Positions 1,837 through 55,100 of a stretch of DNA of 64,000 bases are shown here, in pieces. The notes beneath the pieces were generated by a model. The model was not told the DNA's origin and ran no database searches. It saw only the letters and a program-made list of their open reading frames with translations. The translations under genes and the position numbers were made by a program. The stretch is from Bacteroidales bacterium. GTDB lineage: Bacteria; Bacteroidota; Bacteroidia; Bacteroidales; FEN-979. The stretch's first letter is position 1; each line of letters begins with the position of its first letter. The stretch covers positions 6,610 to 70,609 of the forward strand of contig JAUXWT010000061.1 in assembly GCA_030681475.1 (NCBI GenBank), given 5' to 3'.

Positions 1837-2640
1837 TCAGATATTCAACCTGGTTTGAATTGCCTGGATATCATTGCGTAACTGTTTAACTGTTTCCACC
1901 AGATGATAGTTCTCAGAGTTGAGATTTTCGGGTATTTTTGGACTGATGTAATGCACGAATTGCCAAATTTCACGGATATCCTGTACTTTGATCTCGTACG
2001 GTTCGTAAAGCGGATTCAGCGAATGCAGCAGCAGGTTCCCTTCGGTTTTGATCCTGTTCTCGATCACTTTAAACACGATGCCTTCGTCCATGGTGAGAAT
2101 GATATAGGCATCACGGTCGCGGAGTGTTGTCCAGTCCTGGATGAATACCCCGGTAACCCATGATCCATGCGGGATGGGCAGCATCGAATCTCCGTTAACC
2201 TGGAATGTCCTGTACTTTTTTTGCCGGGATAAAAATGGCAATCTGAAGGTCGGCAGGATGCTGATATATTCAGGGTCGGCAAACCCGCTGGTATATCCCG
2301 CTTTTGCCTTTTCCGAAACGAGTTCGATGTTGTCTTCATTATCCGGACCTACCGTTGTGGTAAGAATACGGAGGTTTGAACCCTTGATGAATACATCGTA
2401 GCCCCGTTCCAGTTGCCTGAGCTGGCTTTCCGGGATTTTGACCAGGTCAACCCTGATCAGGGTGTCGATGGCTACATTGTAATATTTTGAGAAGGCGATC
2501 AGGGTTTCAAAGCCCGGCTGGGCAATGTTGTTCTCGTATCCGCTCAGTGTGGAGCGTTTCATGTTCAGGGTAACGGCGACATCGTCCTGAGTCCGTCCGC
2601 GCCGGTTGCGTAAAAATTTGATGTTGCTGCTGAAAAACAT
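1837..2640 (-). CDS. XRE-HTH plus S24 peptidase repressor (LexA-like/CI-like), probable non-canonical SOS repressor
   Basis: N-terminal HTH (RTQDDVA...RSTLSGYEN), Ala-Gly cleavage site AKAGY, catalytic Ser in NGDSM, Lys in IVFKVI. Divergent from dinB. Confidence 0.88.
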   Translation of the reverse strand: MFFSSNIKFLRNRRGRTQDDVAVTLNMKRSTLSGYENNIAQPGFETLIAFSKYYNVAIDTLIRVDLVKIPESQLRQLERGYDVFIKGSNLRILTTTVGPDNEDNIELVSEKAKAGYTSGFADPEYISILPTFRLPFLSRQKKYRTFQVNGDSMLPIPHGSWVTGVFIQDWTTLRDRDAYIILTMDEGIVFKVIENRIKTEGNLLLHSLNPLYEPYEIKVQDIREIWQFVHYISPKIPENLNSENYHLVETVKQLRNDIQAIQTRLNI

Positions 2641-2742: not shown

Positions 2743-3909
2743 ATGTTAGTCTCCCGCAATATAGTACATCTCGATATGGATACGTTCTTCGTCTCCGTCG
2801 AACGCCTCCTCCGCCCGGAACTGGTGGGGAAGCCGGTAATCATCGGCGGCGCCTCCGACCGGGGGGTGGTGGCTAGTTGCAGCTATGAGGCACGGAAATT
2901 TGGCATACATTCGGCCATGCCAATGAAGATGGCCCGGACGTTGTGCGGAGATGCCATCCTCGTGAGGGGCGACATGGAGCTCTATTCGAAGTATTCGCAC
3001 ACCGTTACGGAGATCATCGCCGAAAAGGCGCCGTTGTACGAGAAAGCCTCCATTGACGAGCATTATCTCGATGTTACCGGGATGGACCGCTTTTTCGGAT
3101 TACAGAAATGGACCCATGAACTGCGGGAAAGTATCATCAAAAACACCGGTCTGCCCATCTCTTTCGGACTGTCGGTGAACAAGACCGTATCAAAGATCGC
3201 CACCGGCGAAGCCAAGCCCAACGGGGAACTGTATGTGGGACCCGGGGCGGTGCAACCTTTCCTGGCGCCATTGTCGATCCGTAAGATCCCGATGATCGGG
3301 GAGAAGACTTACCGGCTGCTCCGTTCCATGGGGGTGGTGACGATCGATACGCTGAGCCATATTCCCGTCGACATGTTGGAACGGGTGATGGGCAGGAACG
3401 GCATCGTGATATGGGAGAAGGCCAACGGCATTGACCGCACCCCGATCTACCCGTACCATGAAGCCAAATCGGTGAGTACAGAAAATACCTTTGAGCAGGA
3501 CAGCATCGACATCGTACGGATGAAAGAGATCCTGGTGAAGATGGTGGAGAAGATATCCTTTGAGTTGCGCGACAAGCAAAAACTAACCTCCTGTGTCACG
3601 GTGAAGATCCGTTACTCGAATTTCGATACCCATACCCTGCAGCAGCATGTACCTTATACCGCATTTGACCATCAGCTCATCCCGGTGGTGAAGAATCTCT
3701 TCGACCGGCTCTACCAGCGCCGCATGTTGATCCGCCTCATCGGCGTTCGTTTCAGTAGCCTCATCTCGGGAAACCCGCAACTCAATATGTTCGATGACAA
3801 TGTGGAAATGGTTAATCTCTACCAGGCGCTCGACAGGATCAGGCGAAAGTATGGGCAGAAGATTGTGAGGAGGGGGGTGGCAATAAGAAATAGCGAAATA
3901 GCGAAATAG
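2743..3909 (+). CDS. dinB: DNA polymerase IV (Y family)
   Basis: HLDMDTFFVSVE, SCSYEARKFGI, ASIDEHYLD, SKIA..KPNG, IRLIGV. Confidence 0.95.
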   Translation: MLVSRNIVHLDMDTFFVSVERLLRPELVGKPVIIGGASDRGVVASCSYEARKFGIHSAMPMKMARTLCGDAILVRGDMELYSKYSHTVTEIIAEKAPLYEKASIDEHYLDVTGMDRFFGLQKWTHELRESIIKNTGLPISFGLSVNKTVSKIATGEAKPNGELYVGPGAVQPFLAPLSIRKIPMIGEKTYRLLRSMGVVTIDTLSHIPVDMLERVMGRNGIVIWEKANGIDRTPIYPYHEAKSVSTENTFEQDSIDIVRMKEILVKMVEKISFELRDKQKLTSCVTVKIRYSNFDTHTLQQHVPYTAFDHQLIPVVKNLFDRLYQRRMLIRLIGVRFSSLISGNPQLNMFDDNVEMVNLYQALDRIRRKYGQKIVRRGVAIRNSEIAK

Positions 3910-3942
3910 CGAAATGGTGAAATAGCGAAATGGTGAAATGGT
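3887..3942 (+). repeat. 8-bp tandem repeat (GAAATRGY)x7 spanning the dinB stop
   Basis: gaaatagc x3, gaaatggt, gaaatagc, gaaatggt x2. Reverse complement of the tract at 2715-2742. Confidence 0.92.
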
Positions 3943-5132
3943 CAGGTAGTTTTTTTTCTCAGATCAAGGAACATCACTATCGAGACAATTACCAGGAGGA
4001 AATTGCTTAGTCCCATCAGGCCTGATTCTAAGATCCGGTGTGAGAGTTCCCTTCCCAAGAGATCATCGGAATTTGCCCCGTAAAAAAAGAGGAGGATGAC
4101 CAGAAAAGGGATCCACCAATATTGTTTTCGGGAAGCCGTGTAAAAAATCATGAATGCAATCAGAGGCGCACTGAACACGAGTAGTACCCAGTCTGTCTTG
4201 ATAAGGTTAGGAAGAAGTGCGATCATCAAAAACCATTCGAAAGCAAAATTCACATCAGCAAAACCGTTCAATTTAGATTCCGGTTTTTCCTGGTGAATGT
4301 TTTTCAGAATGAACATGCTGACAATGGCACAACAGAAAAAAAAGATTACCGGGATTCCCCAGGCTGGCCATGATGGCATGAGTTGTCTTATGAAATAGTC
4401 GAGCGATGTCTTCCCGGGAAACCCACCGCTGTGCATAAGAATAGAATTGATCCAGTCTCCGTACATGCTGATACTCCTTTGCGGACCCGGGAAAACGAAG
4501 GGCAATAATGATATCAATGTGATTGTCAGACAAAGCCAGACCAATGTGTTCCATCTTTTTCTAAGAACCAGCGGAAGCAGCAAGATCATAAGGTAGGGTT
4601 TAACCAGGATCACGATACCCAACAGGATGCCGCCTTGCATATCTTTCCCTCTGAGGAAATTCCGGATCGAAATACAACACAGCATCAGCAGGATAATGTT
4701 GATGTTGCCAACGTACAATTCCCGGGCAAAATGGATCAGAATGCACACAAATGCCAGTGAAATCAACCCGAGTTCATGTTTTAGATTTTCAAAAGGAAAG
4801 TAGTCATGAAGTACTTTACGAATGACCATAAATGTGTACCAGTAAGCCGCGCCAAGAATAGCGAAATGAATAATTGCTGCTGTATTAAAGTTGAAAAGGG
4901 TGTATGGGATGAAAAAAAACAGCGTTGCAGGGCTATACTTGTAAAATCCACTTCCGGTGTAAAAAGAAATCATGTACACCGGTTCCCCAGTAACCAGGTT
5001 TTTTGCTGCTGAATAATAAACCATGAAATCACCGGGATGAAAACGGTCATTAAAGATATTCAGGACTAATGTCAGCAACCAGAGGAGGGCCACCAAAAGC
5101 GTGAATCCATTTATGATGTCATTTTTTTTCAT
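3942..5132 (-). CDS. GT-C fold membrane glycosyltransferase (GT87/DUF2029-like)
   Basis: Multi-pass membrane protein with DFMVYYSAA, YKYSP, GNINIIL and LVKPY motifs. Confidence 0.8.
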   Translation of the reverse strand: MKKNDIINGFTLLVALLWLLTLVLNIFNDRFHPGDFMVYYSAAKNLVTGEPVYMISFYTGSGFYKYSPATLFFFIPYTLFNFNTAAIIHFAILGAAYWYTFMVIRKVLHDYFPFENLKHELGLISLAFVCILIHFARELYVGNINIILLMLCCISIRNFLRGKDMQGGILLGIVILVKPYLMILLLPLVLRKRWNTLVWLCLTITLISLLPFVFPGPQRSISMYGDWINSILMHSGGFPGKTSLDYFIRQLMPSWPAWGIPVIFFFCCAIVSMFILKNIHQEKPESKLNGFADVNFAFEWFLMIALLPNLIKTDWVLLVFSAPLIAFMIFYTASRKQYWWIPFLVILLFFYGANSDDLLGRELSHRILESGLMGLSNFLLVIVSIVMFLDLRKKTT

Positions 5133-5141
5133 AGTTGGAAT

Positions 5142-6608
5142 CTATCGGACCTGTGGTTTTTTTAATTCGTAAACATACCAGAAGCTCGTACGGTCCATCC
5201 AGTGATTGAAGTTGAAACGGTTTATCCATTGAGGGTAAGTGGAGTAAATAAGGGTCGGATTGAATTGTTTTCCGGTCTGCAATATGGGTTTACTTGTCAC
5301 CACAAGATTGATGGTATCCTTCGACGTCTTGATCCTTTGCAACGAATCCACTTGTTTGAATACAAGGCCATTCCTTTTATAATAATGTATGTCAACTTTT
5401 GCCCGGTGATATGGGTTATCACCTGTGAAGTAGAGATTTGCAGGAGAGGGATAATTATCCCAGAGCTTTTTATACAAGGAGATCTGATCATCGGCCGGGC
5501 GGAAGATCAGGATCAAAAGCATTAAAAAGTTAAGCGACCAGAAGATTCGGAATGAAATTCTGGTCACGCGATGTTTGAGTTGCTCATATCCGTTTTTCTT
5601 CAGCAAAAGATCAGCAGTCCGGATGATCATTACCGGGAGAAAACCGATCATGGGGAAAAGGAACCTGATCTCTTTGTGCGGGATGATAAAATGAATAGCC
5701 AGGAATGGTATGATCGTCCAGGTCATCACATCCTTCGGGAAAAAGATGAAATAGAGAAAAACAGCCATGATATAAATGAGACTTAGCGGAGGAAAGGCAT
5801 TAATAAAAGTCTGTTCAATATAGTACCACCATGGACTTACCCCGAAACCAGCGGCTTTATCGAGAAGGATGTTCTGCAGAAAATAATTCCATGAAGTTAG
5901 AACCCATTCACCATAGAACCATCTGTCAATCAGGATACCAAGCATAGTCGCCGCGATGATCCCGGAACTGAATAAAGTAAAATTCCTGAACCCCGATTTA
6001 CGGACTACTGCGAGCCAGGCTGCAAAACCGAGGATCATAAAAGCTACCTGATACCTTGTGATAAATGCCAGGCCCAGAATAAATCCGGTTATCAGATAAT
6101 CAACCGGTTTCAGTCTCTTCCGGAGAAAGAACCAGGCGAGTCCGATAAGGAAAACCCTTCCGGCAACTGTTTCGGATGAAAACCTGACGCTGTTATAGGG
6201 TACAAACCAAATGAAAAATGAGAGCAGCAGGAAGGTGTATAGCAATTTCCGGTTCGTAATTTCCGGTGCATACAGCCTGATGATCATGTGAATGCTGATA
6301 AAAGCAAGCATTGCCGCGAGTAACCGGATGATGAAGGCGATATAAAACGGATTGGTACAACCGGTTACGGAAATGGTCTTATATACAGAATACACCACCA
6401 TAGGCTGAAAGGCCGGCCGCATCATACATGCGTACTCCCATGGAAGGTTGGCCTTTTCCGTTAACCCGAGCTTTAACCCGGCAAATTCAATGACCTGGAA
6501 ATGTTCGTCAAAATGATTATATCCAACAGAAAACCAGGCAGTCAGCAGGAAGACCAATCCTGCTAAGATATAGAACCGACGATTTTTATTCCCTTGTTCA
6601 ATTACCAT
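5142..6608 (-). CDS. GT-C mannosyltransferase, Alg9/PIG-B-like (GT22)
   Basis: HFDEHFQVIE, LPWEY, DRWFYGEW, PWWYY and PHKEIRFLFP motifs. Start placed at ATG 6608 (track start 6623). Confidence 0.8.
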   Translation of the reverse strand: MVIEQGNKNRRFYILAGLVFLLTAWFSVGYNHFDEHFQVIEFAGLKLGLTEKANLPWEYACMMRPAFQPMVVYSVYKTISVTGCTNPFYIAFIIRLLAAMLAFISIHMIIRLYAPEITNRKLLYTFLLLSFFIWFVPYNSVRFSSETVAGRVFLIGLAWFFLRKRLKPVDYLITGFILGLAFITRYQVAFMILGFAAWLAVVRKSGFRNFTLFSSGIIAATMLGILIDRWFYGEWVLTSWNYFLQNILLDKAAGFGVSPWWYYIEQTFINAFPPLSLIYIMAVFLYFIFFPKDVMTWTIIPFLAIHFIIPHKEIRFLFPMIGFLPVMIIRTADLLLKKNGYEQLKHRVTRISFRIFWSLNFLMLLILIFRPADDQISLYKKLWDNYPSPANLYFTGDNPYHRAKVDIHYYKRNGLVFKQVDSLQRIKTSKDTINLVVTSKPILQTGKQFNPTLIYSTYPQWINRFNFNHWMDRTSFWYVYELKKPQVR

Positions 6609-6638
6609 AATTCCACCTCTCAAATCGCTGTTTTGTAA

Positions 6639-8240
6639 TTAAAACCCGTTCAGTTGCAAAGTAACAGTCGGGATAAGTAACAAAAACCCAAGGATGAGCA
6701 TGATCAGCATGAACGGAGTCACCCACTTAAGCCATTTATCGTAAGGGATCCGTGCAATGCCAAGAACTCCCATTAAAACTCCTGAAGTTGGGGTGATCAT
6801 GTTGGTGAATCCATCGCCGAATTGATAGGCCATGACGGTCGCCTGACGCGATACGCCGATCAGGTCGGAGAATTGCGACATGATCGGCATGGTCAGCGCT
6901 GCCTTAGCTGAACCAGAAGGCATGATGAGATTTATTCCGGTCTGTACCACGTACATGATGCTTACCGAGGCATAATTCCCCATGTCGCTCATGGAGTCTG
7001 CAACATAATAAAGAAGGGTGTCGATGACCTGTCCGTTTTTCAGGATGATGATGATACCCCCGGCAAGGCCAACGATCATTCCGGCCGAAAGAATATCACG
7101 CACGCCGTCAAGGAAGTGCTTCGTAATTTCATTCAGGGTATAGTTCATGGCAAGCCCCGATGCGATACCCATAGCAAAGAAAAGCGTGGCAATCTCCATG
7201 ACATACCAGGCATAACCCATCACACCTACGATCAAAAATGCAATGGTGAAGAACAACAGACCCAGAATGAAGAAATGTACTGAATTCCTGAGTGCAACAA
7301 TCCCGGTAATAAAATACAGCGCGGTAAGGATGGGAACGATCGGAATAGTTACAGTGGCGAGCCCGATCTTTAAATCTGTCAGCGGATGGAAAAAGGAAAA
7401 AATGATCAGCACTAGCTGGATGGCTCCGAATACAAGCCAGGCAGCAATGGGTGTGTGGTAATTCTCCGGTTCCTCATCTTTTCCGGTTATAACGCGCCAA
7501 TAATCATCATCTTCATGAACGTAAGATTTTTCAGGATTTTTCCTGATCTTCCTGGCATACCAGAGTACATATGAAATCCCGACAAAATTGATGACTACCC
7601 AGCAAAACATCCGGTATTCGATTCCGGAGAAGAGCGGCAATTTTGACAATCCCTGTGCAATTCCGATGGTAAACGGATTGAGCAGGGCGCCGGCGAATCC
7701 CAGGCCTGCGCCGACGAAACACAAGCACAGCCCCACAATGGAATCATAACCCATCCTTACAGCCAGCGGTACAAAAATAATAGTGAAGGCAATGGTCTCC
7801 TCACTCATGCCAAACACCGCGCCGAAGATGCTGAACATCAGCATCAGCAATACAATGATGAGGTTGTCAACGCCCAGGTATTGCAGTACCCTGTTTTTCC
7901 CGATTTTCTTTGTGTAACGCAGAAAGGCATAAATCCCAATGTCGATCGACCGGGTCTGGTTCATGATCCAGAAAGCTCCGCCGATCAGCAGGATAAAGAC
8001 GATGATATCTGCCTTATCAACGAACCCGTCAAAAATGGCGGAAAAGATCTGCCAGGTCTGTGGTGAGTTTCCGATGTAATGAAAACTATTGCTTTTAACA
8101 ACTTCACGGTCGATCCCGTTCACCTGGATCACCTCACGGATGAAGGTGCCGCCCGGAATGATCCAGGTAAGTATTCCGGCAATAATAACAATAAAGAATA
8201 CAATGACGTATGTATGAGGAATCCTGATTTTTTTTGCCAT
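6639..8240 (-). CDS. YfcC/DcuC-family transporter (putative basic amino acid antiporter)
   Basis: IPHTYVI, GMSEETIAF, NPFTIGIAQ, PSGSAKA, QFGDGFTNMITPTSG. Confidence 0.88.
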   Translation of the reverse strand: MAKKIRIPHTYVIVFFIVIIAGILTWIIPGGTFIREVIQVNGIDREVVKSNSFHYIGNSPQTWQIFSAIFDGFVDKADIIVFILLIGGAFWIMNQTRSIDIGIYAFLRYTKKIGKNRVLQYLGVDNLIIVLLMLMFSIFGAVFGMSEETIAFTIIFVPLAVRMGYDSIVGLCLCFVGAGLGFAGALLNPFTIGIAQGLSKLPLFSGIEYRMFCWVVINFVGISYVLWYARKIRKNPEKSYVHEDDDYWRVITGKDEEPENYHTPIAAWLVFGAIQLVLIIFSFFHPLTDLKIGLATVTIPIVPILTALYFITGIVALRNSVHFFILGLLFFTIAFLIVGVMGYAWYVMEIATLFFAMGIASGLAMNYTLNEITKHFLDGVRDILSAGMIVGLAGGIIIILKNGQVIDTLLYYVADSMSDMGNYASVSIMYVVQTGINLIMPSGSAKAALTMPIMSQFSDLIGVSRQATVMAYQFGDGFTNMITPTSGVLMGVLGIARIPYDKWLKWVTPFMLIMLILGFLLLIPTVTLQLNGF

Positions 8241-8401
8241 GATCACCGGGTTAAAGAACAGCGTGGGTCAACGGTTTCGTCCAAGATCTGAAGAGTAAGA
8301 TGTGACTTGGTCTGCAAAAATGCAAAAAAAATGTGAAAGCCCGAATTATCCCGGAGTATTCGGGTTAAATTTTGTTTTTTCTTTTGATGATGTATGAAAA
8401 A

Positions 8402-8441
8402 TGATTATATTATAGTCAAAAAAATGATTAAAAACTAATCA
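8402..8441. promoter_or_regulatory. Two tandem palindromic boxes TGATTA-N5-TA(G/A)TCA directly before the dnaE2 start
   Basis: TGATTATATTATAGTCA (8402-8418) and TGATTAAAAACTAATCA (8425-8441, perfect inverted half-sites), starts 23 bp apart. Confidence 0.75.
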
Positions 8442-8443
8442 AA

Positions 8444-11400
8444 TTGTATCTCAACTGCCACTCATACTACTCACTCCGCTATGGGACCATCTCCGTGGAG
8501 AGCCTGGTGGATGACGCAGTAAGGACGACCCGCCGGGTCGCCCCGACAGATATCGCCCCGTCACATGTCGCCCTCACCGACATCAACAACACCACCGGAA
8601 TCATGGAATTCGTGGCTGTATGCAAAGAGAAGGGGATCAAACCCATCGCCGGGATCGAATTCCGTCGCGAAGACAAACTGCTTTACATAGGCCTGGCGAA
8701 AAATAACAAAGGTTTTCGGGAACTGAACGAATTTCTGAGCTATCATAACCTGAACAATCAGCCGCTGCCCGATCACCCGCCTGAGTTTCAGGAGGTCGTT
8801 GTTATTTACCCGTTTCGAAATAGTGAAATGGTGAAATGGCGAAATGGCGAAAATCGTCACGCGTCACGCGTCATGCGTCATGATTTCATAGGAATTCGCC
8901 CTTCAGAACTCAACCCGCTGATACTTTCCCGTCACCGCGACCTCATACCCCGGATGGTACTTATGGCGCCAGTTACTTTCAGGAATGAGAAGGAGTATGA
9001 ACTGCACCGTAACTTCAGGGCAGTTGACCACAACGTGCTGCTGAGCCGGCTGGAACCTCATCAGGTCGCGGCTCCCGATGAGGTCATGCTGCCTGTAGAC
9101 GAACTGCTGGATATCTGCAGCGATTTTCCCGAAATCATCCGCAATACTCAACAACTCATGGAAGCATGTTCCATCGATTTCGATTTCAAGGCCTGCAAAA
9201 ACAAAAAAACCTTTACCGGAAACCGTTACGATGATCTTATATTACTAGATAAACTGGCCATGGACGGGCTCCAATATCGCTACGGTAAAGGTCATGGTGA
9301 GGCCAGGCGCCGTATCCGCCACGAGTTGGATATTATCGACAAAATGGGATTTGCCGCCTATTTCCTCATCACCTGGGACATTATCCGCTATTCAATGTCA
9401 CGCGGCTTTTACCATGTGGGGCGAGGGAGCGGCGCCAACAGCATTGTGGCTTACTGCCTGCGCATTACCGATGTGGATCCGATTGAACTCGATCTCTACT
9501 TTGAGCGGTTTATCAATCCAAAACGCACCTCGCCACCGGATTTCGACATAGATTACTCCTGGAAGGAACGGGATGAGGTGCTCGACTATATATTTAAAAG
9601 GTACGGACATGAACACACCGCCTTACTCGGCGCTATGTCAACCTTTAAAGATAAGTCGATCTACCGTGAACTGGGCAAGGTCCACGGGCTGCCAAAAGGG
9701 GAGATCGATGCCTTTTTGAAGCATCCCGAGGAGGCCATCCACAAGAATCACATCATCCGGAAAATCAATGAACTCGGGGTGATGATGGCCGACTTCCCCA
9801 ACATCCGCAGTATCCATGCGGGCGGGGTGCTGATCTCAGAGGAACCGATTACCTGCTATACCGCGCTTGACTTGCCCCCAAAAGGCTTTCCAACCACACA
9901 GTTTGACATGTACATTGCGGAAGATATCAGTTTTGAGAAACTTGACATCCTGAGTCAAAGGGGTATCGGCCATATTTACGAAGCCGCGGAACTCGTGAAA
10001 AAAAACCGGGGTATCAGTGTTGATGTCCACATGGTGCATGCTTTCAAAGAAGATGAAAAGGTAAAAGAGCAATTGCGCAATGCCCGTACGATCGGTTGCT
10101 TCTATGTGGAAAGCCCTGCCATGCGCGGATTGTTGAAAAAACTGCACTGCGATAACTACCGTACATTGGTGGCTGCCAGCTCGATCATCCGCCCGGGGGT
10201 GGCGCGTTCGGGTATGATGAAGGAGTATATCTTCCGTTTTCATCATCCCGGCAAGTTCAAATATCTGCACCCGGTAATGGAGGAACAACTGAAGGAGACT
10301 TTCGGCGTGATGGTCTATCAGGAGGATGTGCTGAAGATCTGCCACCATTTTGCCGGTCTCGACCTGGCTGATGCCGACGTGATCCGACGGGCCATGAGCG
10401 GGAAATACCGTTCGAAAAAGGAGTTAGAGCGGATCATCGAAAAATTCTTCGAGAATTGCCGGAAGTCCGGTTATCCCGAAGAGGTCACCAAAGAAGTATG
10501 GCGGCAGATCGAGTCGTTTGCCGGATACTCCTTTTCAAAAGCCCATTCAGCCTCCTATGCCGTTGAGAGCTACCAGAGTCTTTACCTCAAGGCGCATTAT
10601 CCGTTGGAATTCATCACCGGGGTGATCAATAACTTCGGTGGTTTCTACTCATCCTGGGTCTATTTCAATGAAGCCAGAATATCAGGGGCGAACCTGCATG
10701 TGCCCTGCGTCAACCGGAGCGAATACAAAACCTGCATACGGGGAAAAGATATTTTTCTCGGTTTCATTCACGTGGCGAATCTTGAGACAGGAGTGGCGAA
10801 AGCAATTTACGATTTACGAATGACGATTGACGACTTCCGGAAAACTTCTCCGGACTGCCAGCCGGAGACTGCAGACTGGCAACTGCAAACTGCCAACTGC
10901 GGACTGCCAACTGCAAACAGCAAACTTATTGAAAAACCTTACACCAGCCTTGAGAATTTCATTCAGCGGGTTCCGGTTACGCTTGATCAGTTGATCATAT
11001 TGATCAGGGTTGGTGCGTTTCGTTTCACAGGAAAGCCAAAAGCCTCGCTGCTATGGGAGGCGCACATGCTGATGGGGAAAAATCAAACGCCGGCTAAAAA
11101 TCGCGAAATCGATCAATCGTCAATTCAATCGTCAATCGTCAATCGTCCAATCGTAAATCCGGTACTCTTTCAAACCGCGGTGAAGAAATTTGAACTTCCT
11201 GCGCTCGAGCAGAACACCATTGCCAATGTTTACGATGAGATAGAACTGCTTGGGTTTCCGGTTACCTCAACCTATTTTGATCTGCTGCACACGAAATTCA
11301 GGGGCGACATTCTCGCGCACGAAATGTCGCTCAATGCCGGAAGAACCATTCGCATGCTGGGATTGCTGGTTACCATCAAATATGTTCGCACTGTCAAAAG

Positions 11401-11605
11401 GGAATGGATGCATTTCGGCACCTTCATCGATGTCAACGGGCATTTTTTTGACACCGTTCACTTCCCGAAAGCAGTCACGGAGTACCCATTTCGGGGCGAT
11501 GGCGTCTATCTTGTGAAAGGAAAGATCGTGGAGGAGTTTGGTTTTCCCAGCATGAATGTGGAAAAGATGGCGAAGATGCCGCTGCAGGGCGATCCGCGGG
11601 GATAA
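8444..11605 (+). CDS. dnaE2: Error-prone DNA polymerase III alpha subunit homolog (DnaE2-like), TTG start, with several in-frame low-complexity inserts
   Basis: PHP domain (CHSYYS, ALTDINN), GRGSGANS, catalytic PPDFDID, SIHAGGV, FAGYSFSKAHS, C-terminal OB fold. Shares an upstream motif with dinB. Confidence 0.88.
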   Translation: MYLNCHSYYSLRYGTISVESLVDDAVRTTRRVAPTDIAPSHVALTDINNTTGIMEFVAVCKEKGIKPIAGIEFRREDKLLYIGLAKNNKGFRELNEFLSYHNLNNQPLPDHPPEFQEVVVIYPFRNSEMVKWRNGENRHASRVMRHDFIGIRPSELNPLILSRHRDLIPRMVLMAPVTFRNEKEYELHRNFRAVDHNVLLSRLEPHQVAAPDEVMLPVDELLDICSDFPEIIRNTQQLMEACSIDFDFKACKNKKTFTGNRYDDLILLDKLAMDGLQYRYGKGHGEARRRIRHELDIIDKMGFAAYFLITWDIIRYSMSRGFYHVGRGSGANSIVAYCLRITDVDPIELDLYFERFINPKRTSPPDFDIDYSWKERDEVLDYIFKRYGHEHTALLGAMSTFKDKSIYRELGKVHGLPKGEIDAFLKHPEEAIHKNHIIRKINELGVMMADFPNIRSIHAGGVLISEEPITCYTALDLPPKGFPTTQFDMYIAEDISFEKLDILSQRGIGHIYEAAELVKKNRGISVDVHMVHAFKEDEKVKEQLRNARTIGCFYVESPAMRGLLKKLHCDNYRTLVAASSIIRPGVARSGMMKEYIFRFHHPGKFKYLHPVMEEQLKETFGVMVYQEDVLKICHHFAGLDLADADVIRRAMSGKYRSKKELERIIEKFFENCRKSGYPEEVTKEVWRQIESFAGYSFSKAHSASYAVESYQSLYLKAHYPLEFITGVINNFGGFYSSWVYFNEARISGANLHVPCVNRSEYKTCIRGKDIFLGFIHVANLETGVAKAIYDLRMTIDDFRKTSPDCQPETADWQLQTANCGLPTANSKLIEKPYTSLENFIQRVPVTLDQLIILIRVGAFRFTGKPKASLLWEAHMLMGKNQTPAKNREIDQSSIQSSIVNRPIVNPVLFQTAVKKFELPALEQNTIANVYDEIELLGFPVTSTYFDLLHTKFRGDILAHEMSLNAGRTIRMLGLLVTIKYVRTVKREWMHFGTFIDVNGHFFDTVHFPKAVTEYPFRGDGVYLVKGKIVEEFGFPSMNVEKMAKMPLQGDPRG
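8519..8548 (+). repeat. REP-like hairpin in frame inside dnaE2
   Basis: GTAAGGACGACCCGCCGGGTCGCCCCGACA (stem CGACCC/GGGTCG) resembles GTAG-type REPs and encodes VRTTRRVAPT. Confidence 0.6.
8817..8882 (+). repeat. In-frame 8-bp (GAAATRGY)x4.5 plus 7-bp (CGTCAYG)x4 tracts inside dnaE2
   Basis: gaaatagt gaaatggt gaaatggc gaaatggc gaaa at cgtcacg cgtcacg cgtcatg cgtcatg. Confidence 0.9.
10805..10925 (+). repeat. In-frame 7-bp tracts (AWTKACG)x4 and (ACTGCNR-like)x8 inside dnaE2
   Basis: atttacg atttacg aatgacg attgacg ... actgcag actggca actgcaa actgcca actgcgg actgcca actgcaa acagcaa. Confidence 0.9.
11098..11159 (+). repeat. In-frame 7-bp tract (AATCGTC)n inside dnaE2, reverse complement of 10805-10833
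   Basis: aatcgatc aatcgtc aattc aatcgtc aatcgtc aatcgtcc aatcgta aatc. Confidence 0.88.
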
Positions 11606-11608
11606 ATT

Positions 11609-11641
11609 AAACCTTCCAGGTTTTCAAAACCTGGAAGGTTT
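11609..11641. repeat. Perfect 16-bp-arm palindrome between convergent genes (REP-like element or bidirectional terminator)
   Basis: AAACCTTCCAGGTTTT-C-AAAACCTGGAAGGTTT. Confidence 0.8.
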
Positions 11642-11648
11642 TGGAGGA

Positions 11649-12785
11649 TTAATTGATCGCAAACGGATGCGACGTAACTACGTCAATGTTTCGGCGGATA
11701 AGTTTATGGATATTCTTAAGGTATGGTTTTTCATCCGTTGAACAAAAAGACCATGCGGCACCGGCCTCACCGGCCCTGCCTGTCCTGCCGATTCGGTGAA
11801 CATAGGTCTCCGCCTGTTCAGGGATCTCATAGTTGATCACATGACTGAGTTTGTCCACATCAATTCCACGCGAAGCAACATCAGTAGCGACCAAAACGCG
11901 GATACTGCGGGTCTTAAAATCTCTCAGGGCTTTATCCCTGGCGCTCTGTGACTTGTTGCCATGAATGGCCAGCGCCTTGATACCGCTTCGTGTCAGATTT
12001 TTTACCACCTTATCAGCGCCGTGCTTCGTACGTGTGAATATCAGCACGTTTTGAACAGCTTCATTTTGCAGAATATGTGCCAGGAGTAATTTTTTATTCT
12101 CCTTGTTAACATGAAATACAGATTGTGCGACCAGGATTGGCGGCATCGTATCAGGAGACAGGTTAACCTGAACCGGATTGTGAAGGAGGGATGCGGCCAG
12201 TTTTCTGATCTCCACCGGGGCGGTAGCCGAAAACAGCAATGTTTGGCGTTTCGCAGGCAGTTTTGCGGTGATTTTTCTAATATCATTGATAAACCCCATG
12301 TCAAGCATGCGGTCAGCTTCGTCCAGTACTAAGTATTCTACTTTGTCAAGATGGACATATCCCTGGTTCATCAGGTCGAGCAACCTGCCAGGCGCCGCAA
12401 CGATGATATCGACACCTCTTTGTAGTGTCTGGGTTTGTGCCTTTTGTGAAATGCCGCCATAGATGGTGACAAGGCGAATGTCAAGTCCGGCGCCGTAAGC
12501 CTTGAATTCTTCACTGATCTGTGCGACCAGTTCACGGGTAGGGGCAAGGATCAAAGCCCTGACTGCCCTGCGTTGATTGCGGTCTTTTTCAGTTTCCAGC
12601 AATTGCAGTATGGGAAGCGCGAAGGCCGCGGTTTTGCCGGTGCCTGTTTGGGCGCAACCGAATATATCTTTCCCCTGGAGGATCATCGGAACAGCTTTTT
12701 CCTGGATTGGTGTAGGGTTCAGGTACCCTTTCTTTTTTACAGCGCTTAATAAGGGCTGGATAAGGTTAAGATTTTCAAAATTCAT
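11649..12785 (-). CDS. DEAD-box RNA helicase (RhlE-like, short)
   Basis: AQTGTGKT, PTRELV, PGRLLD, LDEAD, SAT, YVHRIGRTGRAG. Confidence 0.93.
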   Translation of the reverse strand: MNFENLNLIQPLLSAVKKKGYLNPTPIQEKAVPMILQGKDIFGCAQTGTGKTAAFALPILQLLETEKDRNQRRAVRALILAPTRELVAQISEEFKAYGAGLDIRLVTIYGGISQKAQTQTLQRGVDIIVAAPGRLLDLMNQGYVHLDKVEYLVLDEADRMLDMGFINDIRKITAKLPAKRQTLLFSATAPVEIRKLAASLLHNPVQVNLSPDTMPPILVAQSVFHVNKENKKLLLAHILQNEAVQNVLIFTRTKHGADKVVKNLTRSGIKALAIHGNKSQSARDKALRDFKTRSIRVLVATDVASRGIDVDKLSHVINYEIPEQAETYVHRIGRTGRAGEAGAAWSFCSTDEKPYLKNIHKLIRRNIDVVTSHPFAIN

Positions 12786-39494: not shown

Positions 39495-39526
39495 AGCGAA
39501 ACAGCGAAATGGCGAAATAGCGAAAT
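39495..39526 (+). repeat. 8-bp tandem repeat (RGCGAAAT)x4
   Basis: agcgaaac agcgaaat ggcgaaat agcgaaat. Confidence 0.88.
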
Positions 39527-39587: not shown

Positions 39588-39625
39588 TTTCACCATTTCG
39601 CCATTTCGCCATTTCACTATTTCCT
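39588..39625 (+). repeat. 8-bp tandem repeat (ATTTCRCY)x4-5 abutting the ftcD ATG
   Basis: tttcacc atttcgcc atttcgcc atttcact atttcct ATG. Confidence 0.88.
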
Positions 39626-41311
39626 ATGAAACAACTCATCGAATGTGTTCCCAACTTTTCTGAAGGTCGCGACATGAGCGTGATCAAGATCATTACAGAT
39701 GAAATTGAAAAAGTGGAGGGGGTCAGGCTCCTCGATGTTGACCCGGGCGCGGCCACGAACCGCACGGTCGTCACATTGGTGGGCACACCCGATGCTGTGA
39801 TTGAAGCAGCATTCAAAGCAATTAAAAAAGCATCTGAAGTGATCGACATGAGCAAACATCATGGTGAACATCCCCGTTTCGGCGCCACTGATGTTTGCCC
39901 GTTGGTTCCGATCTCAAATATTACGATGGAGGAGACAGCCAGGTTTGCGCATAAACTTGCGGAAAGGGTTGGGAAAGAGCTTGAAATTCCTGTCTATTGT
40001 TATGAAAATGCCGCACTTTTATCTGAACGGCGAAACCTGGCGAACTGCCGCTCGGGAGAATACGAGGGATTGCCCAAAAAGCTGGAAGATCCGCACTGGA
40101 AACCCGATTTCGGACCTGCAACCTTCAACCCGCGCGCAGGCGCCATCGCCATTGGCGCCCGCGATTTTTTGGTAGCTTACAACATCAATTTAAATACCAC
40201 CTCCACCCGTCGCGCCAACGCGGTTGCCTTTGATATTCGCGAAAAGGGGAGGCCGGTGCGCGAAGGCAACCCGATCACCGGGAAAATTAAAAAGGATGAG
40301 CAGGGCAATGAAGTTTGGACTCCCGGCGCCCTCAAAGCATGCAAGGCAATCGGTTGGTTTATCGAAGAATATGGCATTGCACAGGTTTCGATTAACCTGA
40401 CCAATATCAGCATTACGTCTGTTCATGAGGCTTTTGAAGTATCATGTCAGAAAGCACAGGAACGGGGTATGCGGGTGACTGGTTCAGAACTTGTCGGTCT
40501 TATCCCTAAAAAAGCCATGATCGACGCCGGTAAGTATTTTTTATGCAAGCAACAGCGCTCGGTGGGGGTATCGGAAGATGAGATCATTAAAATTGCGGTC
40601 AAGTCTCTCGGACTGGATGACCTGAAACCTTTTAACCCCCGAGAGAAGATCATTGAGTATTTACTGGAGGACCCTGCAGATAAAAAGCTTGTCGGCATGA
40701 CCACTGAAGGCTTCGCCAACGAAACTGCCTCTGAATCACCGGCCCCCGGCGGCGGATCAGTTTCGGCCTACATCGCAGCCCTTGGTGTTTCCCTGGGAAC
40801 CATGGTCGCCAACCTCTCCGCGCATAAGGCCGGATGGGATGACCGGTGGGAAGAATTCTCTGATTGGGCCGAAAAAGGGCAGAAACTTAAAGAGGAATTG
40901 TTATTCCTGGTAGATGAGGATACCAGGGCATTCAATAGGATTATGGAAGCTTTCGGTTTGCCAAAAGGAAACGACCAGGAGAAAATGTTGCGCACCAATG
41001 CAATCCAGGAAGCTACCAGATATGCCATCGAAGTGCCTTTCCGTACCATGCAAAAAGCCTGTGAATCGTTTGAGATTATCCGGGCTATGGTTGAAACCGG
41101 AAACCCCAATTCAGTGACCGATGCGGGAGTTGGAGCGCTTTGTGTGCGTTCAGCAATAATAGGGGCTTATCTGAATGTTAAGGTGAATGGTGCGGGCTTT
41201 CATGATAAAACCTTCTTGGAAGGTATCATGACCCATGCTGACCAACTCCTGGCAAAGGCAAAGATCGCCGAAGAGGAGATTTTGGCGGCAGTCAATGAGA
41301 AAATCACCTAA
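39626..41311 (+). CDS. ftcD: Bifunctional glutamate formimidoyltransferase / formiminotetrahydrofolate cyclodeaminase
   Basis: ECVPNFSEGR, HHGEHPRFGATDVCP, SPAPGGGSVSA, GNPNSVTDAGVG. Confidence 0.93.
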   Translation: MKQLIECVPNFSEGRDMSVIKIITDEIEKVEGVRLLDVDPGAATNRTVVTLVGTPDAVIEAAFKAIKKASEVIDMSKHHGEHPRFGATDVCPLVPISNITMEETARFAHKLAERVGKELEIPVYCYENAALLSERRNLANCRSGEYEGLPKKLEDPHWKPDFGPATFNPRAGAIAIGARDFLVAYNINLNTTSTRRANAVAFDIREKGRPVREGNPITGKIKKDEQGNEVWTPGALKACKAIGWFIEEYGIAQVSINLTNISITSVHEAFEVSCQKAQERGMRVTGSELVGLIPKKAMIDAGKYFLCKQQRSVGVSEDEIIKIAVKSLGLDDLKPFNPREKIIEYLLEDPADKKLVGMTTEGFANETASESPAPGGGSVSAYIAALGVSLGTMVANLSAHKAGWDDRWEEFSDWAEKGQKLKEELLFLVDEDTRAFNRIMEAFGLPKGNDQEKMLRTNAIQEATRYAIEVPFRTMQKACESFEIIRAMVETGNPNSVTDAGVGALCVRSAIIGAYLNVKVNGAGFHDKTFLEGIMTHADQLLAKAKIAEEEILAAVNEKIT

Positions 41312-52143: not shown

Positions 52144-55100
52144 CTAATCTTTCACACACCTCACCGGAAAGGCATTGGTTTTTGCGCTTTCATATATCGA
52201 AACCGAGGAGTTGATCGTATTGAGCCCCCTGGCGATGGGTTTATTTCCTGAGAGTGTGGATGTCCAGAACATGGTCGCCCCGGGGCTGCCGGCATCAAAG
52301 GCCCACAGGTTATTCAGGTAATAGATCCCTTTGCGCAGCGAATTGAATCCTCCTGCTGCTTTGAGATAACCTCCTGCAGTTGCATCTCCGGGGTTCATAT
52401 TTGCCACTGCATCGATCAGGTTCTGCCATTCATTGATTGTAGGTATATGCCATCCCGGAGGGCAGGCGCCCTGGTATGGGGCCTGGGTAAGTGCATATTG
52501 GATAAGCTCATCCCATTGATAGAGGCCGCCATAAACAGTGCAACCTGCATTATCTGTGGTCAGGCAGTACTTTTCATTGATACAGTTGTCAGTTTGAGGC
52601 TGTGGCTGGTTCTGGGAGGGAAAAGTCACCGTGGTACCATACCGAAGGTTCTCAGCCATCCAGCATTTTGCATTGATCATAATGGTACGGTAAGTATTAT
52701 TGTCTCGTGGATCGGTAAGCAAGCTTACCCCGCATGGATAGCTGACATTCGACGTGAGTACCGTGATCGTTTGAGGGATAGAGGAGGCTTTGCAATTATT
52801 CACGGTGGTGTATGTATAATAGATGGTGTTCGAACCAAGAAACACTGCGGCATCACCCGGATTAAATATGTTTCCAGGAAGGGCGGGGGCGGCCGGATTG
52901 TTTAAATGATATGTTCCGGTGGCTCCATATGGGCTTCCTCCTTTTAAAATGAAGGGTTTAGCATTTTTAGTGGTGACCAGGTCATTGCAAAATGAATAGG
53001 AAACGACCGGTAGCGGATGGACTATGATAGACAGGGGGGCAGACACGGGTCCATCCCCACATTCATTATTTCCGGTTACAGTCAAAGTGCCATTGGTTGC
53101 AGTAGTTGAGAATGTTATGCTGATAGCCGGTGTTCCGTTACCCACAATGGACACGCCGGTACCTGTGTAGGCCCATTTATACGAGGTTGCATTCAGGATT
53201 GCGGGAACAGAATATGACTGGGTGGATGTTTTACAAACACTGATTGGTCCGGTGATCGCACCAGGGGTAATTGGCCAGGGCTTAAAGGAAACGGGAAAGG
53301 TCATCGCTGTTGCAGTACAACTTACTCCTGTATATACTATGGTTTCAGTAAGATCAACGAACACCGGTGGCGTGTTTGCCCATAGAACTGAGACCGTATT
53401 TTGACCCAGCGGTAGTTGGGCTGTTCCACCTGTAATGGTCCATTGATAAACATTGCCGGTTGTTCCGGCAGAATATACCTGGGTGGAAAATCCACAGATG
53501 GGGGTCAAAGGGCCAGTGATCACCGGGCTGGGGTTTGGATTAACAGTAACGGTGAGGGTCGTTGGTGTTACAGCGGTACAACCGGTGGAACCCACCGTAT
53601 AATTTACTGTGATAATGTAGGTCCCGGGATTCAGCCAGGTCATGGTAAATTGATTGTCGGAGGAACCTCCCCCGGTAAAGGTACCTCCTGCTGCCGGGAT
53701 ACCCCAAACATAGGATGTCGCCGATGCATCGGTATTGTACGTTTCAATATCCCCCACACAAACATGCGTTTCTCCTGTCAGTGTTGGGGTAGGGAGATCC
53801 TGAACATTAACTGTGTAAGAGGAGGCCACATTGGCTGTACAGCCATTCGCATCGAAATAGTTAACAGTCAGGGTTTGTGGCCCGATGACATTCCAGGCAA
53901 CGGTAATTTCGTTGATTCCCGGTCCCGGAACAAAGGATCCACCTGCCGAAATGGTCCATTGATAGTTTGTCATACCAGCCTCAGTAAAATAAATTAATCC
54001 CGTGGTACCTGAACAAACAGAGGGGGCCCCGGTTATTTGCGGGACAGGCAATGGATTTACCGTAATTGTAAATGATTTTGCGGTACCGACGCAACTGACT
54101 GATTGATTTGTGAATGTCGGAGTGACCGTTATGGTGGCGACAACCGGTGTGGAACCAGTATTGACAGCGATAAACGAAGCAATATTTCCGGTACCGGATG
54201 ACGGCAGACCGATCGTGGCAGTATTGTTTGTCCAGCTATATGTCGTGGTACCAATCGTATTGTTGGTTCCAAAAGTGACAACACTGGTCATGACGTTGTG
54301 GCAAACTACCAGGTTTAAGGGATTGTTCACTTGTCCTGACGGGTTCACTGTGATGGTAAAGATTTCTGCAGGTCCAATACAACTTTCAGATAAATTTGAA
54401 AATGTCGGGGTCACCGTGATGGTGGCTACTACCGGTGCGGTGCCGGTATTGACGGCAGTAAAGGAGGGAATATTTCCGGATCCGGCGGCTGCGAGACCAA
54501 TTGATACTGTATTGTTTGTCCAATTATAAGTTGTAGTGCCCCCGGAATTATTCGTATTGAAGTCGACATCCCCGGTTGATGTATTGTTGCAAACAACCAG
54601 GTCGGTTGGATCGATCACCTGACCGGTCGGGTTCACCGTGATCGTAAAATTTTCTGTGGGGCCAACACAACTTTCTGACAAATAGGTAAATGTCGGAGTA
54701 ACAGTAATTGTGGCTACCACCGGCGTTAAGCCGTTGTTGACGGCGTTAAAGGAGGCAATATTACCGTTGCCTGAAGCAGGCAGGCCAATCGAAGTCGTGT
54801 TGTTGAGCCAGTTATAAGTGGTTGTGCCGACCGTATTTGTTGTTCCAAAGGTGACAGCAGTGGTGAGTGCGGTATTGCATGCAACGAGATCGGTTGGGTC
54901 GTTCACCTGACCTGTTGGATTTACGGTGATGGTAAACGTTTTTGCAGGACCGACGCAACTTACCGATTGATTGGTAAATGTCGGAGTAACGGTAATTGTG
55001 GCTACCACAGGCACAGTGGTGGTATTGATAGCTGTAAAGGAAGGAATATTGCCATTCCCGTTGCCTGCAAGGCCGATAGAAGTGTTATCGTTAGCCCAGC

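Follow-up and report, generated by a model that had tools for sequence, protein, structure and literature searches.

In-frame seven- and eight-nucleotide repeat arrays in the loops of a DnaE2-like polymerase across a Bacteroidales genus

A gene for a DnaE2-like C-family DNA polymerase lies in a 64 000-nucleotide (nt) stretch of Bacteroidales DNA (the window: positions 6610 to 70 609 of contig JAUXWT010000061.1, assembly GCA_030681475.1; the source genome is called G000 here). Its product of 1053 amino acids (aa) carries extra residues at four sites, at three of which they are encoded by tandem arrays of 7- or 8-nt units. Orthologues throughout the genus vary in length and sequence at the same four places, and arrays of the same kind are scattered over the whole genome. 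The explanation that we favour, at a probability of roughly 0.8, is a genus-wide proliferation of short tandem repeats of non-triplet unit length, which are translated and tolerated in disordered loops. Since many other genes of the genome carry such arrays, those of the polymerase are better seen as a tolerated by-product than as a special switch. An earlier note on this DNA, made from the letters alone, had offered other readings: a repeat-depositing process that targets tolerant loops of this gene, or frameshift switching or RNA-level control of a mutator polymerase.

Four insert sites in the polymerase

Orthologue loci in related genomes are labelled with L-numbers (L005, L043 and so on). 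A search of the genus turned up 34 full-length copies, 31 of which were aligned with three orthologues from outside the genus (L015, L016 and L019; the truncated L017, L018 and L020 were left out). Alignment columns gapped across all three outgroups fall into four regions, S1 to S4, at residues 30-37, 128-138, 795-829 and 886-904 of the G000 protein. Compared with the 979-aa outgroup proteins, G000 has 9, 11, 35 and 19 extra residues at these sites, the sum of 74 being exactly the difference between 1053 and 979. The earlier note had named alignment to orthologues as the check on whether its repeat tracts are insertions; they are, the outgroups being gapped at exactly these places.

Arrays in the window were found with Tandem Repeats Finder (TRF), and matches of each tract elsewhere in the genome with blastn-short. 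Arrays of 7- and 8-nt units are present in frame at S2, at S3 (S3a and S3b) and at S4 (Table 1), as had been claimed, and the three odd peptides quoted with that claim all appear in the 1053-aa translation. The open reading frame (ORF) is indeed intact and retains its DFDID motif, at residues 366-370. Neither 7 nor 8 divides by three, so one peptide period of seven or eight residues (for example QSSIVNR, HASRVTR or RNGEMAKW) takes three units to encode. The tracts in G000 are degenerate: matches amount to 75-94%, and uninterrupted runs extend over 1.9-3.3 units. The tracts match ~66 (S2), ~11 (S3a), ~9 (S3b) and ~20 (S4) other genomic loci, and the 8-mer family of S2 has further arrays flanking dinB (2715-2742 and 3887-3939) and just upstream of ftcD (39495-39526 and 39588-39623; ORF 39626-41311), in agreement with the earlier observation that these flanks share an 8-mer. 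The motif DLRFTIYDLRFT, related to the S3a peptide, is common in the genus.

The claim that at least four inserts are built from intergenic repeat families thus holds for S2 to S4, whose tracts recur elsewhere in the genome, but not for S1. A REP-like hairpin (8519-8548) had been reported there; what we find is a 13-nt palindrome, GACCCGCCGGGTC at 8527-8539 (fold -13.7 kcal/mol, z -1.97), the remainder of the site being a 15-nt tandem duplication of the native stretch coding for ALTDI. The palindrome has four matches in the genome at up to one mismatch, against ~2.5 expected by a rough chance estimate, and the S1 segment has just one other blastn-short match, of 18 nt. Membership of S1 in a GC-rich hairpin repeat family, for which there are only the four loose matches, is unsupported.

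An AlphaFold model of the protein, built on a 108-sequence alignment, has a mean predicted local distance difference test score (pLDDT) of 90.6 and a predicted template modelling score of 0.89 (an earlier model from 17 close orthologues had a mean pLDDT of 48.4 and was unusable). The pLDDT drops below 50 at residues 139-143, 802-830, 883-907 and 909-912 and nowhere else, and residues 31-40, at S1, have a mean of 62. Mapping the inserts on a predicted structure, as had been advised, therefore places them in the low-confidence parts of an otherwise confident model: S1 and S2 in loops of the PHP domain, S3 in the helix-hairpin-helix region, and S4 in the tether before the C-terminal beta-rich (OB-type) domain.

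Variation among orthologues

Whether relatives carry different repeats at the same sites was a further check proposed from the sequence, and they do. Across the 31 same-genus orthologues the aligned stretches range from 11 to 45 aa at S1, 20 to 111 aa at S2 (where the out-of-genus baseline is 21), 14 to 71 aa at S3 and 18 to 91 aa at S4. TRF reports 7/8-nt arrays at S2 in 23 of the 31, at S3 in 15 and at S4 in 20, at S1 in none of the 31, and at no site in the three outgroups; 26 of the 31 have at least one array at the sites. Elsewhere in the orthologues there are essentially no arrays, the exceptions being a weak 3-copy TRF match in G000 (window 10983-11007, in a conserved stretch coding for LDQLIILIR) and, in four orthologues, arrays inside untrimmed upstream ORF extensions.

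The periodic insert peptides are translated units (for example QSSIVNR, HASRVTR, RNGEMAKW, ISPFSHFA, DEGRGTK and YQLTNLPT), and RNGEMAKW and ISPFSHFA represent the two strands of one unit family. At one and the same site, close species differ in the sequence, the length and even the strand of their units. The sisters L043 and L048 on the core-protein tree, whose cores are 97.1% identical, nevertheless stand 63 nt (nine heptamers) apart at S3 and 27 nt apart at S2; L006 and L045, with cores 99.0% identical, are the same at all four sites. Some members of the genus, L058 and L009 among them, have a length at a given site that equals the baseline or comes close to it. Uninterrupted runs reach 8.0 heptamers in L043, 6.1 heptamers in L005 and 5.8 octamers in L012, runs of at least four units being found in 11 of the 31 orthologues and of at least six units in two; the largest array, in L048, has ~26 heptamers in total. 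Through all this variation the 34 full-length copies in the genus are single open frames of 996-1172 aa without an internal stop. Three further copies are split, by contig ends only.

That the inserts are an assembly artefact, or are removed before or after translation in the manner of introns, inteins or ribosomal bypass, is barely credible on these data. The genome is a metagenome assembly, and contigs from a second sample do break at the arrays. Against an artefact, 26 of 31 genus genomes, all assembled independently, have arrays at the same four sites, and a single contig covers the gene from end to end without a difference, although that contig may belong to the source data. As for removal, no intein-like Pfam domain was found, and an Rfam search over 8200-11700 at E values up to 1 returned a chance snoRNA-like match only (21.3 bits against a gathering score of 64). 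The z-scores for folding of the S2, S3 and S4 regions (-1.3, -3.1 and -0.2) give no consistent signal. Excision is disfavoured because translation needs a kept frame and freedom from stops, which RNA excision would not, and both are kept in 34 of 34 copies. RNA-level control or excision, one of the ideas put forward for this gene, is accordingly unsupported.

Outside the genus the sites are mostly empty. In distant Bacteroidota the protein typically has 976-980 aa, and inserts of at least 5 aa occur at or near the sites in 8 of ~70 aligned orthologues. Seven of these (L074, L081, L092, L118, L122, L124 and L131) have them at about residues 116-123 (S2) or 827-832 (S4); the insert of L078 is at residue 145, and L081 has a second one at 879. 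No array lies inside the gene in any of the 47 distant loci with a defined start (among L064-L139), while 15 of the 47 have one in the last 200 nt before the polymerase start, in the spacer between dinB and the polymerase. These 15 upstream arrays are species-specific, each with a different unit, so that one orthologous intergenic position hosts unrelated arrays. Around the gene in distant Bacteroidota we count 85 arrays of 7/8-nt units in 596 kb, at 37 of 76 loci, all intergenic except two, which are both in L074 at S4.

A selected function for the loops, which might tune tether length, bind mutasome partners (Y-family polymerase, RecA, clamp) or act at the DNA or RNA level as protein-binding sites, is very unlikely in our estimation. 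The four sites do remain occupied or variable throughout the genus, and S4 stands directly before a conserved xLF segment of the alignment consensus, which we take to be a possible clamp-binding motif. The S3b region folds better than its shuffles (the z of -3.1 given above), only 3 of 200 being equal to it, and the limited set of unit families in intergenic DNA could reflect a binding factor. A conserved role sits poorly, however, with the replacement of one unit by another of different sequence, length and strand at a single site in close species (RNGEMAKW in one, ISPFSHFA in another), with genus members such as L058 and L009 that are near baseline length, and with a wider clade that evidently works without inserts, as the distant loci attest. 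The same peptides, moreover, occur in unrelated enzymes.

Repeat arrays throughout the genome

The G000 assembly (4.24 Mb in 111 contigs, 98.7% complete) was searched for arrays of 6-9-nt units in at least three copies, with a block-shuffled genome as the control. It holds 593 arrays, 281 of heptamers and 242 of octamers, where the shuffled genome has two. Placement was judged on an ORF map made by greedy choice among stop-to-stop ORFs of 100 aa or more, which has 3133 ORFs and covers 90% of bases; on this crude map 434 arrays lie outside ORFs, 55 no more than 60 nt from an ORF end, and 104 deeper inside 77 ORFs. Density is ~1 per kb in intergenic DNA and 0.027 per kb in coding DNA. From intergenic arrays to stop codons the distance has a median of 12 nt and is 30 nt or less in 234 of 363 cases, and spacer density rises from 0.47 per kb between divergent genes to 1.07 between tandem and 1.34 between convergent genes. 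Intergenic arrays draw on a limited set of unit families.

Two side observations concern placement and composition. The arrays that touch or straddle ORF ends number 126, including that of DinB (array 3887-3939, stop at 3909), so many proteins, DinB among them, may have repeat-encoded C-terminal tails. Stops on both strands occur in 10 of 333 intergenic 7/8-nt units (~3%), against a rough expectation of ~10-13%; we draw no conclusion from this bias, because a few related unit families dominate and the effective sample is small.

Three ORFs contain five arrays each: the DnaE2-like polymerase, PurL and a DUF7948/PKD surface protein. Another 15 contain two each, including NadE, an epimerase, MurF-Alr, MeaB and an alpha-2-macroglobulin, and PolA has one. 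We checked 19 array-bearing ORFs against Pfam (17 with at least two arrays, 2 with one), and 15 of them have domains. The linkers of PurL are hypervariable in the genus and contain the motifs FTIYDLRFT, HASRVT, EMAKWRN and QYSIFN, none of which is present in outgroups; outgroup linkers are free of arrays as well. It had been remarked that no other gene of the window shows a comparable accumulation, and within the window this is so, TRF reporting no other 7/8-nt array of at least three copies inside a long ORF; over the genome it is not, since two other ORFs have as many as five.

These counts bear on the idea that the gene is a contingency locus, at which a single 7- or 8-nt unit gained or lost would shift the frame, so that the mutator polymerase would be switched off or on in some cells of a population. 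We judge this to be very unlikely. It is true that the units are non-triplet and within the ORF, that the C-terminal OB-fold region would be lost if the frame shifted at S3 or S4, and that some orthologues have the long pure tracts described above (L043, L005 and L012, with four or more units in 11 of 31, and the ~26 heptamers of L048). No copy turned up in 3 of 40 genus genomes (81-94% complete), so that the gene is perhaps dispensable too. Yet no out-of-frame copy exists among the 34 full-length species-level copies, and the G000 tracts, at 1.9-3.3 uninterrupted units, lack the long pure run of a contingency locus; on these two counts frameshift switching, as it had been suggested for this polymerase, is unsupported in the assembled sequences. 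Perfect tracts of at least five units are depleted in ORFs genome-wide (1 of 104 arrays against 25 of 363 intergenic ones, Fisher P 0.015), and the same arrays are found in PurL, MurF-Alr and PolA, where on/off switching is implausible. The tracts also lie in the middle of the gene or late in it, whereas the enrichment of simple sequence repeats tied to frame-shift phase variation is near the N-terminus (Lin and Kussell, as summarised in PMC4692102). Slippage-driven inactivation is conceivable in the orthologues with longer pure tracts, although no out-of-frame allele was seen.

Table 1. Features of the polymerase locus, and array-bearing housekeeping ORFs elsewhere in G000 (window positions unless a contig label is given)
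Feature	Coordinates	Strand	Residues	Description
DnaE2-like C-family DNA polymerase gene	8444..11605	+	1053 aa	TTG start aligning with the ATG of orthologues; from ORF, Pfam and fold
S1	8527..8573	+	~30-37	13-nt palindrome and 15-nt local tandem duplication (TRF 8538-8573, period 15, 2.4 copies); no 7/8-mer array
S2	8816..8880	+	~125-146	8-mer CGAAATGG (TRF 8816-8852, 4.6 copies), then 7-mer CGTCACG (TRF 8855-8880, 3.7 copies); encodes RNSEMVKWRNGENRHASRVMRHD
S3a	10805..10833	+		Degenerate 7-mer array ATTTACG/ATTGACG (TRF 10805-10833, ATTGACG, 4.1 copies); encodes IYDLRMTIDDF
S3b	10854..10926	+	802-830	7-mer array ACTGCAA/ACTGCCA (TRF 10868-10926, ACTGCAA, 8.4 copies); encodes DCQPETADWQLQTANCGLPTANSK; within helix-hairpin-helix region
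S4	11107..11159	+	~886-904	7-mer array AATCGTC (TRF 11107-11159, 7.6 copies); encodes DQSSIQSSIVNRPIVNP; linker before C-terminal OB-fold domain
Y-family polymerase (DinB-like)	2743..3909	+		Pfam IMS and IMS_C; usual operon partner of the polymerase
Non-canonical LexA-type repressor	1837..2640	-		Pfam HTH_3 and Peptidase_S24; divergent from dinB
Promoter/operator-like element	8396..8443	+		Found otherwise only in the lexA-like/dinB divergent region, 2656-2700
PurL	C94:11275-15078			Array-bearing housekeeping ORF
NadE	C28:45128-46828			Array-bearing housekeeping ORF
MurF-Alr	C65:181183-183768			Array-bearing housekeeping ORF
PolA	C109:33720-36611			Array-bearing housekeeping ORF

Origin and tolerance of the arrays

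Under the explanation that we favour, arrays would arise in, or be copied into, many places of the genome, mostly just behind genes, and selection would remove those that break a fold, add a stop or shift the frame. Within a gene an array would survive only under three conditions: its place is a surface loop that is disordered, or a linker between domains; all three frames of the strand used are free of stop codons; and the total added length is a multiple of three. Surviving arrays in permissive loops would then expand, contract (by net multiples of three) and decay. The polymerase would offer four permissive places, namely two PHP loops, the mid-part of the helix-hairpin-helix region and the tether that precedes the OB-fold, and array birth, slippage and decay there would make the sites hypervariable between species with the rest of the protein conserved. 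We infer that the inserts are near-neutral passengers. The process reaches housekeeping enzymes genome-wide and is not aimed at the mutator polymerase. The proposal that repeats are deposited in tolerant loops of this gene is therefore kept only as far as the tolerant loops go: the inserts do lie in low-confidence, hypervariable sites, and the rare distant inserts fall at S2 and S4, but a process aimed at this gene is unsupported, given the 77 ORFs with internal arrays, the equal load of PurL and the surface protein, and the sharing of motifs with PurL.

Several points weigh against a tolerated, untargeted proliferation. The polymerase is an outlier in load, with five arrays against 0.086 expected from the coding-region mean (Poisson P ~4e-8), and its essential paralogue DnaE1 has no internal arrays, though arrays flank it at both ends; a gene-specific factor, for example relaxed constraint, low expression or more permissive loops, may for these reasons contribute. 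Neutrality itself is an inference. Low pLDDT at the inserts is partly to be expected, because the folding alignment has no homologous columns there. The ORF map is crude, and 4 of the 19 array-bearing ORFs that were checked have no Pfam domain. Finally, the same unit families recur at different sites, in different genes and in different species, so that local slippage alone is insufficient; the recurrence argues for copying or a strong bias over independent local slippage.

A bolder version of the favoured explanation takes up this last point, and we hold it as a doubtful possibility. It supposes an active, family-specific seeding beyond local slippage, which would plant a few 7/8-nt families at new loci, enzyme loops included. 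The linkers would then evolve mainly by turnover of non-triplet microsatellites, and DnaE2 would be incidentally slippage-switchable in species with 6-8 uninterrupted (up to ~26 total) heptamers. Units from a shared pool might be spread to new loci by templated copying or by recombination.

Identity and genomic context of the polymerase

The protein has the Pfam domains PHP, DNA_pol3_alpha, finger and HHH_6, and it scores 502.2 with TIGR00594 (Pol III alpha superfamily; NCBIfam cut-off 434.35). Foldseek matches its model to solved Pol III alpha chains at template modelling (TM) scores of 0.77 (7pu7, Mycobacterium tuberculosis DnaE1) and 0.76 (3e0d). The PDFDID of the polymerase aligns with PDFDVD of Escherichia coli, and none of the catalytic residues D366, D368 and D501 varies in the 108-sequence alignment; we take D501 to be the counterpart of E. 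coli D555. The more specific NCBIfam models stay below their cut-offs, both NF004225 for error-prone polymerases (430.6 bits against 939) and NF004226 for DnaE (522 against 1002). G000 has two PF07733 genes, the DnaE2-like polymerase and a 1167-aa DnaE1 on contig C63, with a mutual identity of 32%.

It is reasonable, by context, to regard the gene as the damage-response DnaE2-type polymerase of the Bacteroidota system of a Y-family polymerase and DnaE2, although its score falls short of the curated error-prone model; the label 'DnaE2-like' draws on the dinB-like and helix-turn-helix (HTH)-S24 repressor neighbours and by a shared upstream element. Of 115 related loci, 68 have a DinB-like gene in the flank, in most cases immediately upstream, and 57 have a lexA-like HTH-S24 repressor gene in the flank. 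In G000 the end of dinB and the polymerase are 4.5 kb apart, parted by three minus-strand genes at 3942-8246 for GT87 and GT22 (Alg9-like) glycosyltransferases and a DcuC-type carrier. By comparison, dinB abuts the polymerase in L007, L046, L053, L061 and L063 of the same genus and at most distant loci.

The 13-mer ATGATTATATTAT has exactly two copies in the 4.24-Mb genome, one upstream of dinB and one upstream of the polymerase, each followed by TGATTAAAAAC, for a shared element of ~42 nt. Judging from these letters, the split-off polymerase appears to have kept the shared control region of the lexA-like/dinB promoter, and we regard the ~42-nt element as a candidate operator for the HTH-S24 repressor. 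We also tried the published LexA-box pattern GGA-N5-TCC; it matches the window 19 times against 17.85 expected, with neither promoter among the matches, and was rejected.

In Bacteroidetes, PolY2-DnaE2 has been described as a putative mutasome variant (Timinskas and Venclovas 2019, PMC6511836), and the non-canonical LexA family and its regulon are the subject of Sanchez-Osuna et al. 2021 (PMC8565304). The G000 polymerase resembles that system in being a second C-family polymerase with intact catalytic aspartates, accompanied in most relatives by a Y-family gene upstream of it and by an HTH-S24 repressor that is divergently oriented. It differs in that the pair is split in G000 by three opposite-strand genes, the polymerase retaining its own copy of the shared upstream element, in its score under the cut-off of the NCBIfam error-prone model, and in its repeat-built loops, which are not mentioned in the available excerpts of PMC6511836 and PMC8565304.

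Two repeats of other kinds involve surface proteins. At 54092-58365 the window has a 288-nt unit in 14.8 copies (69% matches), presumably a repetitive surface-protein gene. Paralogous PKD/Fib_succ_major surface proteins (C106:1-4302, C77:3605-8905, C87:1-3435 and C90:2-4114) share 9-nt arrays of the TGCATTGTT type at similar positions, probably a phenomenon distinct from the 7/8-mers because the unit is triplet-compatible.

Comparison with known systems

Long simple sequence repeats (LSSRs) have units of 5-11 nt, heptamers being the commonest (Mrazek et al. 2007, as summarised in PMC4679880). Heptamer direct repeats are described from cyanobacteria and Beggiatoaceae, those of TAACTGA type by MacGregor (2015, PMC4679880) and those of GGGNATC type in PMC4692102. 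In excerpts of these papers such repeats are said to occur in a few Bacteroidetes too, with stop codons limiting which strand overlaps coding sequence (PMC4679880), and to have a strong non-coding bias (PMC4692102). The G000 arrays belong to this class of LSSRs or short tandemly repeated repetitive (STRR)-like sequences: they are far above chance (593 against 2) and mostly non-coding (434 of 593 are not within an ORF, in a genome that is ~90% ORFs), and they are head-to-tail arrays of 7-8-nt units, hundreds per genome, enriched near gene ends and drawn from few unit families. What sets them apart is their translation deep within conserved enzymes, at recurrent loop sites that turn over between species of one genus, as well as unit sequences that differ from the published families. 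Coding-region copies are treated as under-represented or excluded in the excerpts of PMC4679880 and PMC4692102. No paper on in-frame 7/8-nt arrays in DnaE2, or on such arrays genus-wide in Bacteroidales, was found in the limited paper collection that was searched.

Rickettsia palindromic elements (RPEs), apparently mobile palindromes of ~100-150 bp, are reportedly inserted in frame within protein genes. They are said to be dispersed repeats of non-coding type that are tolerated in conserved and even essential genes at surface positions neutral for the fold, and in this the G000 inserts are like them. The latter are, however, tandem 7-8-nt arrays that lack terminal inverted repeats and change by unit number. 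We rejected RPE-type selfish elements for the inserts, which are not discrete palindromes of ~100-150 bp; S1 has a palindrome of 13 nt only.

The neuO gene of E. coli K1 has a long, perfect, 5'-proximal heptanucleotide tract with documented on/off variants. The polymerase shares with it a 7-nt unit inside an ORF whose frame is kept only by multiples of three units, but its tracts in G000 are short or degenerate and lie mid-gene or late, and no off-frame allele is seen in 34 species.

At the present level of evidence, these results remove the idea of a specially targeted or switched mutator polymerase. They offer in its place a natural insertion-tolerance map of a C-family polymerase, in which four sites take 0 to ~90 extra residues genus-wide around a fixed catalytic core, and a clean case in which protein loops evolve by way of microsatellites of non-triplet unit length. 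For annotators and structure predictors they are a warning not to take the odd low-complexity peptides of these Bacteroidales proteins for errors, the peptides being translated repeats of the genome. The main interest lies in the polymerase itself, as a four-site example that extends across a genus.

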